Shown here piece after piece: positions 14,365 through 34,115 of a stretch of DNA of 64,000 nucleotides (positions are counted from its first letter, which is position 1; each line of letters starts with the position of its first letter). The position numbers and the translations under genes were made by a program. The notes beneath the pieces are model-generated. The model searched no databases, was not told the DNA's origin, and saw only the letters and a program-made list of their open reading frames with translations. The DNA is from an uncultured Eubacteriales bacterium. Its GTDB lineage: Bacteria; Bacillota; Clostridia; TANB77; CAG-508. The stretch spans positions 155,538-219,537 of the forward strand of contig CATKWX010000001.1 in assembly GCA_949840345.1 (NCBI GenBank), in the 5' to 3' direction.

Positions 14365-14500
14365 TTAAATTACGTTCCTCGGCTACATTACGAAATTTAA
14401 GAAATTCTAAATTCGTTTTATGGCACCCTTCCACGCATAGCGTGAACTCTTTCCATAAAACTTCATAAGAATTTCTAACATTTCTTCATTTGCATTCGTC
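14365..14500 (-). repeat. Family C structured element (inverted orientation) in ileS leader
   Basis: Reverse complement matches 17218-17362 and 22222-22368. The helix cgttttatgg/ccataaaacg covaries with the other copies. Confidence 0.75.
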
Positions 14501-14519
14501 ACTTAATTTAAAATTTAAT

Positions 14520-14785
14520 TTCTATAATTAAATTTGCATATGAAAACAAAAAATCCCTCATCCATAATAGGACGAAGGATTATAAAATCAACCGTGGTAC
14601 CACCTAAATTAACTTAAAAATTATAAGTTCACTCTCATTCATTTAACGCATGGATTACGGCTTAACTTACTACAATTTTCACTTAAGCAACTAAAAGGTG
14701 ATAATAAATAAATTATTATTCTACCAAAATTTCAGCATACATTTGGCTCTCTAAAGATTTTACTTTATTTACCGTGTCCTTTATT
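14520..14785 (-). ncRNA. T-box riboswitch leader of ileS
   Basis: Minus strand shows AAUUUAGGUGGUACCACGG (T-box consensus AAUUAGGGUGGUACCGCGG). It is followed by a 9-bp terminator stem (ccuucgucc/ggaugaggg) plus a U-run, with an AGAGAG GA motif near the 5' end. The position is the usual one for ileS. Confidence 0.65.
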
Positions 14786-14808
14786 ATTGTTTTTAAATTA
14801 TAGATTAT

Positions 14809-14837
14809 ATTGTACCACGTTTTATTTTTGTTGGCAA
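14809..14837 (-). promoter_or_regulatory. sigma-A type promoter of the ileS T-box leader
   Basis: Minus strand has TTGCCA, a 17-nt spacer, and TGgTACAAT (extended -10). Confidence 0.5.
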
Positions 14838-14855
14838 GAGATAATTGTTAGATTT

Positions 14856-15387
14856 TTATAACTTATTAAATTTCACTACCCTTGCTGGAATTCCTACTAC
14901 TGTTACATTATCTTCTATATCTTTTAGTACTACAGCACTTGCACCTATTTTTACATTGTTTCCAATGTTTATTGGCCCTAATACCCTTGCACCTGTTCCT
15001 ACCATTACATTGTTTCCGAGCGTTGGATGTCTTTTATATTTATCTTTTCCAGTTCCACCTAGTGTAACTTGATGATATATTGTGCAATCATTTCCGTACA
15101 ACTGCAGTTTCTCCTATTACTATTCCCATACCATGGTCTATAAATAATCTATTCCCTATTTGTGCACCCGGATGAATTTCTATTCCTGTAATAAATCTTG
15201 AAATTTGTGATATTAATCTAGCTATAAATTTTAATTTTATTTTATAAAAAGTATGTGCAATTCTATGAAAAAATAGAGCATGAAAACCCGGATACAAAAA
15301 TATTACTTCTAAAATATTTTTTGTAGCAGGGTCCTTTTCTTTTATATTCTTTGCATCTAAATATAAGTTTTTTATTCCAGAAAACAT
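14856..15387 (-). CDS. cysE: serine O-acetyltransferase; frameshifted
   Basis: Hexapeptide-repeat C-terminus and a CysE N-terminus in two frames (ORFs 15088-15387 and 14856-15101). The sequence gttgtaCggaaat replaces the expected AVVGNDC, i.e. an extra C before GGA at about 15095. Confidence 0.7.
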
Positions 15388-15465
15388 AAAATTACACCTC
15401 TATACATTATATTACTAATATATTTTAAGGTGCAAAACAAAGGACGAATTCCTTCGCCCCCATAA

Positions 15466-15849
15466 TTACAATATATTTTGTTTTTCAGTTTCTCTTGCAT
15501 TTCCTTTTACCACTCTTTTAATATAGTGAACAAATTTCCTCCAAATTGATATTTTATCTACTACTGTTAAATCTGTTATTTGAGATAACTGCTCTTCATA
15601 TTTATTTTCTTTTTTATTTAATATTCCTTCTGTATTTATATTATTTATAGAAAAATTCAAATCATTTCCTTTTGTAATATCTAGCTCTACTAAAAAACCA
15701 TCTAGCGTTTCCATAACATTTACCTTGCTAGTATTCTTTGTTACAAAAGATGGATTTTCTTTAAATATTTTTCCCTTATATTCAATTTGTAGTTTATTAT
15801 TTTTTAAAGTTGTATTTATTGAATAATCTAAATTATCAATACCTTTCAT
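15466..15849 (-). CDS. hypothetical protein (127 aa)
   Basis: ORF followed by a hairpin plus T-run terminator at about 15405-15450. Confidence 0.35.
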   Translation of the reverse strand: MKGIDNLDYSINTTLKNNKLQIEYKGKIFKENPSFVTKNTSKVNVMETLDGFLVELDITKGNDLNFSINNINTEGILNKKENKYEEQLSQITDLTVVDKISIWRKFVHYIKRVVKGNARETEKQNIL

Positions 15850-31172: not shown

Positions 31173-31262
31173 TTTACAAATTAATTTTTGTGATATAATT
31201 AATTTATAGTACTTAAGGAAACTTAGCCTTGTTATTAAAATAATAAATTATTTTTAGGATAG

Positions 31263-31796
31263 ATGCATATGAAAAAAGATGAAAATATTATAGATGAATT
31301 TAATTTAACAATTACAGATATAGTAAACAATGATACAGTAAATCTTATGAAAAACTTTAGACAACATTATGACACAAGTTGTTTTGAACACTGCAAAAAT
31401 GTTGCTTTTTATAGTTATTTAATTTGTAGAAAACTTAACTTAGACTATGAAGCTGCCGCCCGTGCTGGCATGCTTCATGACTTATTTTTATATGACTGGA
31501 GAAGGAAGACTGGAGACAGAAAAGGCTGGCATGGCTTTAGACACCCAAGAATTGCTCTAAATAATTCAAGCAAATTATTTGTTTTATCTAAAAAAGAACA
31601 AGATATTATTTTAAAGCATATGTGGCCATTAACTATTGTTCTTCCTAAATATAAAGAAAGCTTTATAGTTTCTTGCGTAGATAAGTTTTGTGCAATTAAG
31701 GAGTCTTATGAACATTATAAAGAAAATCGTAAGCTACAAAAAGCATATAGGTATGCATATGTATTCTTAAGTTTAGTAATCTTTAAAATTGTATAA
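31263..31796 (+). CDS. HD domain-containing phosphohydrolase
   Basis: H...HD motif (GMLHDLF), 177 aa. Confidence 0.55.
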   Translation: MHMKKDENIIDEFNLTITDIVNNDTVNLMKNFRQHYDTSCFEHCKNVAFYSYLICRKLNLDYEAAARAGMLHDLFLYDWRRKTGDRKGWHGFRHPRIALNNSSKLFVLSKKEQDIILKHMWPLTIVLPKYKESFIVSCVDKFCAIKESYEHYKENRKLQKAYRYAYVFLSLVIFKIV

Positions 31797-32101
31797 CAAT
31801 ACTTGTTTCTTTTCCACACTATTTTAATAAAATTAAAATAAGATATATATATAATTTTTAAACGAACGGATGTGGGGACCGACAAATTACAGACTGTAGA
31901 AGAAATTACGAAAGTAAATTTCGGCATACAGTCTGTTATGCAGTTGGGAGTGAATTTAAAAAATTATATATATATCTTATTTAATATCATTTCTTCTAAA
32001 CTCATATATATTAATTCCTATATTATTTTTGTAATTATCAAAATACATTTAATGCATATTTTCATAATTTTCAAAATATATTTTATTGAAAGGAAAAGCT
32101 T

Positions 32102-32857
32102 ATGATTAATGTTTTATTAAATGGATGTAATGGAAATATGGGAAAAGAAATTAAAAAGTACATAGATAATATCGAAAATTTTTCTATTATTTGTGGTTTT
32201 GATAGAATTGATAGTGGAGACAATGATTTTCCAGTTTATACAGATACTAATAGCATTATAGAAACTCCAGATATTATAATAGATTTTTCTGTTCCAACTG
32301 CTAGTATTAATATTCTAAATTATGCAGTTTCAAAAAAGATCCCCATAGTTATAGCAACTACGGGATTTTCAAATGAGCAATTATATGTACTACAAGAAGC
32401 TTCAAAATCTATTCCTATTTTTAAGTCTTCTAATATGTCTTTAGAAATTAATATTATGAATATTTTAGTTTCTAAACTCTCTAAATTATTAACCGATTGC
32501 GATATTGAAATTATAGAAACACATCATAAAAACAAAATTGACGCACCAAGCGGTACAGCATTAATGCTTGCAGATTCTATAAATTCTTCCCTAAATGATA
32601 GTATGACATATACATATGATAGAACTAGCTCTAGAGAAAGAAGAAAATCAAATGAAATTGGCATCCACTCTGTAAGAGGTGGAACAGAAGTTGGCAAACA
32701 TACTGTATTATTTTTAGGAGATAATGAAAGTTTTGAAATCACACATACAGTTTCTTCTAGAAAAATATTTGCAATTGGCGCAATTAAAGCTAGTGAATTT
32801 ATTATTAATAAGCAAAATGGATTATATGGAATGGAAAATTTAGTAAACTTTAACTAA
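32102..32857 (+). CDS. dapB: 4-hydroxy-tetrahydrodipicolinate reductase
   Basis: N-terminal NAD(P) fold (LNGCNGNMGKEI) and the DapB C-terminal domain, 251 aa. Confidence 0.8.
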   Translation: MINVLLNGCNGNMGKEIKKYIDNIENFSIICGFDRIDSGDNDFPVYTDTNSIIETPDIIIDFSVPTASINILNYAVSKKIPIVIATTGFSNEQLYVLQEASKSIPIFKSSNMSLEINIMNILVSKLSKLLTDCDIEIIETHHKNKIDAPSGTALMLADSINSSLNDSMTYTYDRTSSRERRKSNEIGIHSVRGGTEVGKHTVLFLGDNESFEITHTVSSRKIFAIGAIKASEFIINKQNGLYGMENLVNFN

Positions 32858-33243
32858 AGTATGTTCTTTAGTGCTAATTTTTCTCTATCTTTTATATGTT
32901 CTAATAAGTAACTAGATTTTTCAAGTTCTTTTATTGCTTCACTATATTCATTTTCTTCTATGCAAGTTTTCATACTTACTATTGCCAATTCTATTAAGTC
33001 TAATTCGTTATGCATTACCATTATAGACCAATTCTTTTCTATTTTTTCCCATTTATCATATATATCTTTAGCTAACTCTTCACTATTATTTTGCTCAGAA
33101 TTCTGAGCCTTTTTTATTTCTTCTCTTAATATTTCTATATCGTTAGTTAGCTCATCACTAGTTTGATTTAAATAGCCTTGTGATATGTTTGCTCCAACAA
33201 TTACGATTAATATAGAAATTACTATAATTAATATTTCCTTCAT
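32854..33243 (-). CDS. DUF4363 family protein
   Basis: Small signal-anchored protein that typically pairs with the upstream DUF421 gene. Confidence 0.45.
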   Translation of the reverse strand: MKEILIIVISILIVIVGANISQGYLNQTSDELTNDIEILREEIKKAQNSEQNNSEELAKDIYDKWEKIEKNWSIMVMHNELDLIELAIVSMKTCIEENEYSEAIKELEKSSYLLEHIKDREKLALKNIL

Positions 33244-33281
33244 AATATATCTCCTTATATTATAATTGACTTTATATATAA

Positions 33282-33950
33282 TTATTCTTTCTTTTGGCAG
33301 AATATTTGTCCCTTCCCATCATATGTTACAATTAGCGCTTCTTCTGGCTTTATCTTAAACTTTTCTACTTGTTTTTTTAACCAATTATAATCTTTTCCAA
33401 TTACTTGCAAATTATCTGACATTACTTTCCCATCTAAAACTAAATCATAAGGCAGTCCTTCATACTCAGGAGTAATTTGTAAATCTTCTGGTATAACTGT
33501 TCTTTTTTCTGGTTTTTGTATCACTGTTAATTGTCCACTTGTTTCTAATATCGCATACTCTACATCTCCTAATGAAAATGTTCCATTTTGTCTTAATCTT
33601 TCTTGCAATTCATTTAATGTTATTTTTTCTTTTTTTAATGATTTTTCGTCTATCTTACCTCTATATATCAATATTGTAGGTTTCCCTGATATAATGCTTC
33701 TTAAAACCAGACTTCTCATATTTATAAAAGATATTAGCATTTGCATTATAAGTAATCCTATTATTGGTATAATTCCGTTAAATATTGGTATTCCTGTATC
33801 AGACATTGGAACAGAAGCTAAATCTGCTATCATTATTGCTATTGCAAGTTCAAATGGTTGAAGCTGTCCAATTTCTCTTTTCCCCATTAGTCGCATCGTT
33901 AGTAGTACTAATATGTATATTATTATTGTTCTTATAAGTGTAGCTAACAT
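33282..33950 (-). CDS. DUF421 (YetF-like) membrane protein
   Basis: RLMGKREIGQLQPFELAIAIMIADLA is the YetF/DUF421 signature. Confidence 0.6.
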   Translation of the reverse strand: MLATLIRTIIIYILVLLTMRLMGKREIGQLQPFELAIAIMIADLASVPMSDTGIPIFNGIIPIIGLLIMQMLISFINMRSLVLRSIISGKPTILIYRGKIDEKSLKKEKITLNELQERLRQNGTFSLGDVEYAILETSGQLTVIQKPEKRTVIPEDLQITPEYEGLPYDLVLDGKVMSDNLQVIGKDYNWLKKQVEKFKIKPEEALIVTYDGKGQIFCQKKE

Positions 33951-34019
33951 AAAAAACTCCTTATTATAATTTTTAGAATAAAATATATTAAATTAAAAAA
34001 AGCGCATTGAAAGTAATTT

Positions 34020-34115
34020 GAAGTTAGAAATTCTTATATTTATTTTATGGAAAGAGTTCACGCTTGCCTAGGATCGGTGCCATAAAATAAATTTAGAATT
34101 TCTACGAAAATTAGC
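34020..34115 (+). repeat. Family C element, partial copy
   Basis: Helix tattttatgg/ccataaaata is a compensatory variant. Confidence 0.6.

Follow-up and report, generated by a model that had tools for sequence, protein, structure and literature searches.

Four copies of a long-hairpin element among housekeeping genes

The stretch of DNA analysed here, hereafter the window, comprises 64,000 nucleotides (nt) from an uncultured Eubacteriales bacterium (assembly GCA_949840345.1, contig CATKWX010000001.1, positions 155,538 to 219,537), and its sequence matches contig CAPTNI010000003.1 of the metagenome-assembled genome (MAG) GCA_948707265.1. It holds exactly four copies of an intergenic element that folds into a long hairpin and has the exact same core, ATGGAAANNGTTC-hairpin-GGTGCCAT, in each of them. 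Written as the pattern ATGGAAANNGTTC-N(8-24)-GGTGCCAT, this core matches the window exactly four times, against 0 matches in 100 shuffles, and an nhmmer profile of 97 homologues recovers the same four copies only, with E-values of 1e-23 to 1e-28:

14333-14544, minus strand: copy 1, subtype A, full hairpin (nhmmer interval 14379-14499, minus, E 3.6e-28)
17189-17398, plus strand: copy 2, subtype A, full hairpin (nhmmer interval 17228-17349, plus, E 2.8e-24; fold z-score -4.46)
22189-22402, plus strand: copy 3, subtype A, full hairpin (nhmmer interval 22231-22352, plus; fold z-score -8.0)
33969-34159, plus strand: copy 4, subtype B, complete hairpin (nhmmer interval 34002-34123, plus, E 1.3e-23)
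14565-14796, minus strand: T-box of the ileS leader, found by Rfam search

Copy 1 lies between the T-box terminator and the start of ileS, in the same sense as this gene. Copy 2 separates a polysaccharide deacetylase gene (17405-18268, minus) from a PDDEXK_2/Rpn gene (16066-17001, minus) and is antisense to both, copy 3 is located downstream of prmC (22386-23231, minus), and copy 4 between a DUF421 gene (33282-33950, minus) and a holin-like gene (34323-34703, plus). The flanking genes are ordinary housekeeping genes, encoding IleRS (with its T-box leader), polysaccharide deacetylase, HemN, WhiA, PrmC, SpoIID, DapB, DUF421 and the holin-like protein; the names SpoIID, WhiA and DapB are precomputed Pfam labels on gene calls of the matching contig.

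The original prediction, made from the sequence alone, was that of a 145-nt element resembling a transposable element of the miniature inverted-repeat type (MITE), bounded by terminal inverted repeats (TIRs). The four sites and orientations that it gave are borne out by inspection of the sequence, the core pattern and the profile; its boundaries are not. Measured between the outermost pairs enclosing the core, the hairpins span 190-215 nt, with ~150 nt in common to the four copies (mean column identity, 77%). The presumed TIRs, AATAAAATTCCG...CGAGGAATTTTATT, are internal to the stem, where pairing runs 12-25 nt further outward, and this stem segment includes a conserved internal loop, CGAAUG / GCCGAGGA. 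The copy at 34020, taken to be partial, is a complete member of a second subtype (B), the outer core of which reads ..GCGCATTGAAAG.. / ..CTTGAACGAGC.. and is found repeatedly in many other genomes. Copies without the TIRs had been named in advance as evidence against the prediction, and subtype B is such a group.

A conserved core with a covarying fold

Each window copy is predicted to fold into a long rod, with energy z-scores against dinucleotide shuffles of -4.5 for copy 2, -8.0 for copy 3, and -3.0 and -5.7 for the remaining two; the inner 148 nt of the hairpins have folding energies of -41 to -47 kcal/mol. The most conserved module comprises a short stem, a purine-rich internal loop and a variable tip hairpin:

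17272-17308, plus strand: module of copy 2, with stem AUGG/CCAU, purine-rich loop AAAAUG / AAGGGUG and variable tip hairpin
14420-14456, minus strand: equivalent module of copy 1 (core pattern)
22275-22311, plus strand: equivalent module of copy 3 (core pattern)
34047-34083, plus strand: equivalent module of copy 4 (core pattern)

Invariant or nearly so are AUGG-AAA..G-UUC on the 5' side and G.A.GGUG-CCAU on the 3' side, which jointly form the purine-rich internal loop; in subtype A, the loop CGAAUG / GCCGAGGA constitutes a second conserved internal loop further out. At the tip, a stem of 5-6 bp varies between copies and is closed by a CUUGN loop in 19 of 64 distinct tips.

Covariation was assessed on an alignment of 97 distinct copies (A3), scored on the fold of the copy at 17218 (61 pairs in 7 helices). 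Pairing is possible in 81.4% of the cells, compared to 67.0% after shuffling, and the covariation score is 0.360, compared to 0.142; neither observed value is reached in any of 500 shuffles, and the score does not exceed 0.166 when one strand is shifted out of register. Across the 97 copies, pairing reaches 95-97% in the three inner helices. RNAalifold yields 22 inner consensus pairs, 15 of which display compensatory double changes (for instance, CG 53 / UA 21 / AU 17). The covariance analysis proposed alongside the original prediction is thus strongly positive, and folds and alignments uphold its structural details: agaaattct does pair with agaatttct and ttttatgg with ccataaaa, the base beside the paired boxes covaries, and the central tip hairpin differs in every copy.

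Several features of the core point to one strand. The conserved helices are rich in G-U pairs (UG 72 and UA 25 at column pair 89/116; AU 41 and GU 34 at 39/164; UA 34 and GU 32 at 47/157), with G-U cells outnumbering A-C cells 24:4 and 30:10 in two subtype alignments. The same profile run on the reverse strand reaches an E-value of 3e-4 at best, ~20 orders of magnitude worse. These patterns, the G-U-rich helices together with the weak reverse-strand score, show the core fold to be strand-specific, and hence that the single-stranded form of one strand matters. With its compensatory changes and strand asymmetry, the core has the properties of a structured single-stranded nucleic acid, either a noncoding RNA or folded single-stranded DNA (ssDNA), and the strand signal would fit both alike.

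Other explanations of the conserved positions fared poorly. A small open reading frame (ORF), ATG GAA ... CCA TAA, crosses the core in frame in all four window copies and was rejected: core lengths in the family, 29 to 44 nt, are in some cases not divisible by three, and early stops occur in some copies. A double-stranded sigma-70 promoter (TTCACG, 17-nt spacer, TAAAAT) was rejected by inspection because the spacing hangs on the variable length of the tip. The boxes AGAAATTCT and AGAATTTCT, each nearly palindromic, pair with one another; that they are protein-binding palindromes is contradicted by variants, AGACCTTCT...AGAAGGTCT, which retain the pairing between the boxes and lose the self-symmetry. 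The loop sequences do not seem to fit the consensus motifs of K-turn, loop E or hairpin-ribozyme loops.

Homologues in uncultured Clostridia and their genomic context

Scanning ~186,000 species-representative genomes with the core pattern listed at least 118 loci. When 107 of these were checked against the profile, 94 held up and 13 turned out to be fortuitous matches in unrelated and for the most part coding sequence, so that at least ~100 true homologues are present among the matches listed, with several copies per MAG; the copy census called for at the outset accordingly shows an element that is multi-copy in many genomes. The confirmed homologues come from MAGs of uncultured Clostridia, Clostridium, Lachnospiraceae and 'Scatovivens', recovered from the guts of humans, rabbits, ruminants and other hosts. 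The gene content of the window itself, with SpoIID, WhiA and a T-box, likewise points to a low-GC bacterium of the Clostridia type. Diverged copies alter even the 'invariant' GGTGCCAT (to GGTGCTAT and GGTTCCAT in L037:3274 and L143:1813-1934; L numbers are our labels for sequences from other genomes), and the exact-pattern scan therefore undercounts the family. Furthermore, a number of short-read contigs end inside or beside the element (L129, L130, L131, L134, L137-L139, L144 and L145). Given that contigs break at the element, copy numbers in MAGs are probably underestimated. Hairpins of this kind break short-read assemblies and generate strain-level structural variation.

The family has apparently escaped notice. 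No Rfam 15 family overlaps the copies at the gathering threshold, and at E <= 10, on an 8.3-kb or a 281-nt slice, nothing meaningful was retrieved, the best match being pntA with 19 bits against a gathering threshold of 54. FuFi-1, which we take to be represented in Rfam, gave no match. The element thus matches no Rfam 15 family, be it the hairpin ribozyme, another self-cleaving ribozyme or FuFi-1, a named motif of Fusobacteria and Firmicutes (PMC5737381). Similar sequences were absent, by blastn, from collections of 72,556 plasmids and 50,697 phages, and the only two pattern matches in IMG/VR were due to chance, in unrelated sequence. A literature search, including exact sequence strings, found no description of the element family, its core or its flank-copying arms. 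Overall, the family is widespread in low-GC gut Clostridia-type genomes and previously uncatalogued.

All copies are intergenic, often 70-250 nt from gene ends, and none is spanned by a long ORF in the neighbourhoods of the homologues. The four possible arrangements of neighbouring genes all occur (36, 19, 17 and 15 cases among the listed homologues). That the element is a cis-regulator of a particular gene class was rejected on these grounds, given that copies are also never found inside ORFs and are dispensable. Clustering of 1001 ORFs neighbouring ~100 copies revealed only generic families, such as ABC-F, and no recurrent nuclease or transposase; clusters of PDDEXK_2 proteins or integrases were likewise missing.

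These data bear on the source of mobility proposed in the original prediction, which was a frameshifted Rpn gene next to copy 2. The ORF in question (16066-17001, minus) does not look frameshifted: it encodes an intact 311-aa PDDEXK_2 protein covering positions 1-225 of the 229-position Pfam profile. Its association with the element is confined to copy 2, and no PDDEXK_2 gene recurs near ~100 copies, which argues against it as the transposase. The larger autonomous element sharing the TIRs that had also been envisaged did not turn up either: none of the 118 listed loci holds a version with the core split into halves.

Arms that contain copies of flanking DNA

In MAGs, the core centres much longer inverted repeats, with arms of up to 100-160 nt that are 93-100% complementary. 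The hairpins of the family span 228 nt in the median and 476 nt at most. Arm sequences are wholly different between lineages, even inside one MAG, yet stay complementary, and three copies with the same 5-nt termini, GTTAC...GTAAC, still have unlike arms. Mismatches in the outer arms are balanced between wobble (17) and A-C (16) pairs; to judge by this balance, the complementarity looks like a product of recent DNA-level copying rather than of strand-specific selection.

The origin of arm sequence can be traced at both window loci for which an empty allele is available, those of copies 3 and 4. In each, the ends of the insert are inverted copies of the opposite flank:

33982-33989: palindromic 8-mer AATATATT at the left junction of copy 4, also present at 34140-34147 and 34162-34169
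34140-34161, plus strand: AATATATTTTATTTAAAAAT, with which the DNA inserted at copy 4 ends on the right; it repeats, in inverted form, the left flank that was already there, ATTTTTAGAATAAAATATATT (33969-33989)
22206-22217, plus strand: ATGAAATATATA, the part of the copy 3 arm that lies furthest out; it is the native flank TATATATTTCAT (22368-22379) in inverted form

At the copy 4 locus, the empty allele reads ...TTTTTAGAATAAAATATATT/TTAAAAC... (the slash marks the junction) and the insert ends in AATATATTTTATTTAAAAAT, which is that left flank inverted. After prmC, the empty allele reads CTATGAAATATATA/ATACAACAT..., and the filled alleles contain, in addition, the element and TATATATTTCAT, which is native ATGAAATATATA in inverted form; of the copy 3 arm pair, the empty allele (L142) keeps only the native flank. 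The outermost arms of one further copy (L011) are a 36-nt, 100% complementary duplicate shaped like an intrinsic terminator, with a GC stem followed by a T-run. The outer stem is at least partly built from local DNA, which explains why arms are lineage-specific yet perfect.

Presence, absence and inversion at orthologous sites

Presence/absence polymorphism is found at otherwise conserved sites. At the copy 4 locus, an empty allele (L124) has 100% identical flanks and lacks 180 nt (33990-34169). The repeated AATATATT at this locus is either a target-site duplication (TSD) centred on a 12-bp target palindrome or microhomology used for deletion. Copy 3 occurs at the same prmC junction in L143, L144 and L145 (PrmC 80% and 74% identical), and is missing from L142, a related species (PrmC 89% identical to that of the window), in which the gap between prmC and whiA measures 98 nt and the absent DNA corresponds to about 22206-22367. 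Elsewhere, a ~400-nt hairpin (L037) fills the gap between two co-directional genes that are 15 nt apart in a relative (L065).

At the ileS leader, strains L148 and L149 carry ~215 nt of unrelated sequence in place of copy 1, between the T-box terminator and the ileS ATG. Comparison of L148:1640-2090 and L149 with window positions 14277-14565 shows a near-identical T-box and entirely different repeat content in the spacer. This spacer is a hotspot, and the leader of an essential gene tolerates its wholesale replacement.

One MAG contains three near-identical copies that have the whole 470-520 nt unit in common, arms included. The search for TSDs suggested with the original prediction gave clean 8-bp duplications at three copies and none at most: non-palindromic TSDs flank L089, L096 and L115 (ATCTTGAT, TATATGAA and TTTTTGCA, respectively), all with GTTAC...GTAAC ends. 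Palindromic 8-mers within the arms can mimic TSDs, and few clean ones are left after filtering; in another subfamily the flanking repeats are 7-10 bp long, and for most copies there is no enrichment over the null. Finally, the core is inverted relative to its flanks between the orthologous loci L088 and L094, as expected from recombination between the arms.

Origin and mode of spread

The element is, in sum, a multi-copy, insertion-polymorphic and invertible foldback with a conserved strand-specific centre and flank-derived arms. We favour the view, to which we assign a probability of about 55%, that the four copies represent a family of non-autonomous, structure-dependent foldback (long-hairpin) elements spreading between the genes of low-GC gut bacteria of the Clostridia type. 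A central module of ~120-150 nt is conserved in sequence and in its strand-specific fold across many genomes, with helices P5-P7, two purine-rich loops and a short variable tip, often closed by a CUUGN loop. The two arms that flank it are almost perfectly complementary and differ between lineages. In its behaviour, the element is best read as similar to MITEs and ERIC repeats, not as a TIR-defined MITE: of the MITE-like mobile element first proposed, the short, non-coding, intergenic and covarying character and the mobile behaviour (empty sites, TSDs and near-identical copies) stand, whereas the definition by TIRs does not. What makes the family stand out is a core conserved in sequence and covarying fold across ~100 copies from many differently labelled MAGs, combined with a conservation pattern reversed relative to that of MITEs, with a constant centre, free ends and arms copied from flanking DNA.

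The cis-acting requirement for such spread would be the folded single-stranded centre, as ssDNA or RNA, rather than the ends; it might be recognised, act as a primer, or cause stalling and template switching. One arm would then be re-synthesised from the other by intrastrand copying, either fold-back or template-switch, a process that could keep the arms perfect, permit their fast drift between lineages and let them creep into and capture the flanks. Given that no enzyme is encoded by or linked to the element, mobilisation would have to use a host or unlinked factor. Copies that are transcribed would form long RNA hairpins and could incidentally affect neighbouring mRNAs.

Comparable repeats are known. 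ERIC (IRU) and the Neisseria Correia elements (CREE/NEMIS) are non-coding, imperfect intergenic palindromes of 100-150 nt or more that are present or absent between strains, lack a linked transposase, and, when co-transcribed, form long RNA hairpins; they are both mobile and active as RNA hairpins and affect neighbouring mRNAs. The element described here is likewise intergenic, strain-variable, transposase-free and a long hairpin. Some ERIC- and Correia-type repeats also possess a conserved central region; however, copies of these repeats are conserved over their whole length, including the termini, and Correia elements have a TA target duplication, whereas here a complex, asymmetric and covarying centre is conserved across many species and the arms are lineage-specific, almost perfectly matched and include copies of adjacent DNA. 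A second parallel is offered by recombination sites formed by folded ssDNA, integron attC sites among them, in that function here would similarly need a strand-specific hairpin with unpaired or extrahelical positions, structure is retained more than stem sequence, and hairpin length is variable. By contrast with attC, the central loops are strongly conserved in sequence, and the copies show no R''/R' core sites in the attC arrangement (R''/L''...L'/R', RYYYAAC...GTTRRRY). An integrase is missing, as are arrays of cassettes located at ORF 3' ends; the flanking genes are housekeeping ones. Families of stem-loop-containing repeated sequences in bacterial genomes, reportedly treated by Petrillo and colleagues in 2006 and by Cozzuto and colleagues in 2008, are said to be of the same general kind.

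Several points weigh against mobility of this type. Transposition events were never seen directly, and each 'empty' allele could be a deletion instead of the ancestral state; the 8-bp direct repeat bounding the copy 4 polymorphism could mediate slippage, and the empty L142 has a PrmC closer to that of the window (89%) than the filled relatives have (74-80%). Most copies carry no clean TSD, with repeats of 7-10 bp in one subfamily. The retention of the prmC copy across species could mean that it is useful to the host, and the deeply conserved asymmetric internal loops and G-U-rich helices have the appearance of a functional RNA. Fold-back copying, for its part, is deduced from just two junctions and the statistics of the arms.

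More speculatively, the family could exemplify a class of structure-dependent mobile elements without conserved ends, in which a selfish hairpin spreads independently of a transposase, driven by replication or template switching; we entertain this as a tentative extension and would not bet on it. The universally conserved core, with its strand-specific fold, would then act as a recognition or priming module of ssDNA or RNA, possibly catalytic or polymerase-recruiting, and the second arm would be made by fold-back copying of the first. Each copy would consequently be a perfect, lineage-specific palindrome able to capture host flank as an inverted duplication and to flip in place. The evolutionary mode seen here, with a conserved centre and near-perfect, fast-changing arms that hold copies of the flank, would, if confirmed, document how palindromes can lengthen and spread through bacterial genomes with no transposase of their own, and how such elements remodel 5' leaders (as in ileS behind its T-box), operon junctions and terminators.

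Among the alternatives to a foldback element, the one that survives best is a family of structured noncoding RNA genes, possible although clearly the less probable reading. Here, the core would be a functional RNA, for example protein-binding or catalytic, and the arms a double-stranded processing stalk, likely an RNase III substrate that frees the core from a host transcript; changes in copy number would reflect secondary duplication or horizontal transfer. The strong covariation, invariant internal loops, G-U-rich conserved helices (G-U to A-C, 3-6:1), pronounced strand asymmetry of the profile score and recurrent CUUGN tip loop (19/64 tips) all suit an RNA, as does the maintenance of the prmC copy across species with PrmC 74-80% identical, in which the internal loop toggles between the co-varying states AAAGAG/GGAAGGG and AAAAUG/GAAAGGG. 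However, ssDNA hairpins tolerate G-T pairs too, so the G-U signal is no proof of RNA, and wobble pairs are not in excess in the outer arms. Moreover, visual inspection of the conserved part located neither a conserved promoter nor a conserved terminator, lineages differ in their palindromic arms, neighbouring genes take all four arrangements, the core has flipped between orthologous loci, a species can dispense with copies and no Rfam family matches. The foldback-element and functional-RNA readings are compatible. The compact, highly conserved and covarying core, with at least ~100 copies and absent from Rfam, is a candidate new structured RNA or ssDNA motif.

An improbable alternative is a host cis-element, that is, a hairpin recruited to numerous intergenic positions as a bidirectional terminator or insulator, or to stabilise mRNA. 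The consistently intergenic location, often 70-250 nt from gene ends, the great stability of the hairpins (inner 148 nt, -41 to -47 kcal/mol), the T-rich runs after some copies and the terminator-like arms of L011 agree with such a role. Nevertheless, the stems are AT-rich and, with 60-120 pairs, far longer than those of intrinsic (Rho-independent) terminators, the conserved asymmetric loops would be needless for termination, and presence/absence within a species marks the copies as dispensable. The positions fit no better: a sense copy lies within the ileS 5' leader, where termination would silence an essential gene, and the ~400-nt copy mentioned above sits between operon genes just 15 nt apart in a relative.

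Least probable, and in our view very unlikely, is a classical MITE that depends for its movement on a TIR-recognising transposase supplied in trans, with the Rpn/PDDEXK_2 neighbour in that role as originally proposed: the family is short (up to ~476 nt), non-coding, multi-copy (four copies in 64 kb) and insertion-polymorphic, three copies combine 8-bp TSDs with shared GTTAC...GTAAC ends, and a PDDEXK_2 gene adjoins copy 2, but termini are not conserved family-wide, the 5-nt GTTAC end being confined to a minority of copies with differing arms, subtype B is without the TIRs first named, most copies are without TSDs, no transposase or PDDEXK_2 gene recurs near ~100 copies, and no autonomous version with split halves exists in the 118 listed loci. 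Classical MITEs are deletion derivatives of insertion sequences (IS), such as RUP, other IS630- or IS200/IS605-derived MITEs and PATEs; they are likewise small, non-coding, multi-copy and insertion-polymorphic, and share with some copies here the presence of TSDs (8 bp). The foldback family differs from them in having no conserved TIRs in common with an autonomous IS, in central instead of terminal conservation, in TSDs that are inconsistent or absent in most copies and in arms regenerated or extended from the flanks. Central conservation with lineage-specific complementary arms is the opposite of what a transposase-recognised MITE would display.

Other repeats in the window

The window also holds other repeats. 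GC-rich hairpins, (C)GGAACGNCGAGGGCGNCGTTCCCTAC, make up an abundant family distinct from the four copies and occupy at least 20 sites (for instance, 819-863, 4614-4658, 11421-11465, 22156-22200 and 56668-56712); they are often followed by AATGTTTGCAATATGTT; variant stems read GGGCGGAC... and GGACGAGCAATGCTCG.... These hairpins stand out from the ~27% GC background, flank many genes and adjoin copies 2 and 3. Another module immediately precedes gene starts on the minus strand and consists of a ribosome-binding site (RBS), a CAAAATTTGC...GCAAATTTTG hairpin and runs of the 7-mer CACTATTCA/TTATTCA:

14268-14348, 2780-2874, 6184-6267, 8787-8959, 21071-21161, 27380-27477, 36073-36127 and 63030-63077, minus strand: RBS-hairpin-7-mer module

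One occurrence forms the last part of the ileS leader, beside copy 1, and the module may be a shared 5' untranslated region or promoter cassette.

Around prmC, a ~900-nt cassette is duplicated, with one copy on each side of the gene (21210-22160 and 23319-24230, 79-92% identical). It encodes proteins of 223 aa, without a Pfam match, and 200 aa; the 198-aa gene call equivalent to the 200-aa paralogue carries no Pfam label. Both cassette copies are absent from L142, in which the order is M23 peptidase, prmC, whiA, suggesting that the cassette is another mobile or duplicating unit.

Two further kinds of inverted repeat are present in the window. A hairpin repeat family, ..AAAAGAATTAGTATATNGC..., with 48-nt arms ~30 nt apart, is present at 30082-30210 and 39072-39198, with a related third copy at 57607-57676. 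Spacer-less palindromes as long as 88 bp are generally unstable; a perfect one of this length (34709-34796; two 44-nt arms, 100% complementary, with TTGACA) lies between the convergent genes at 34323-34703 (plus) and 34801-36111 (minus).

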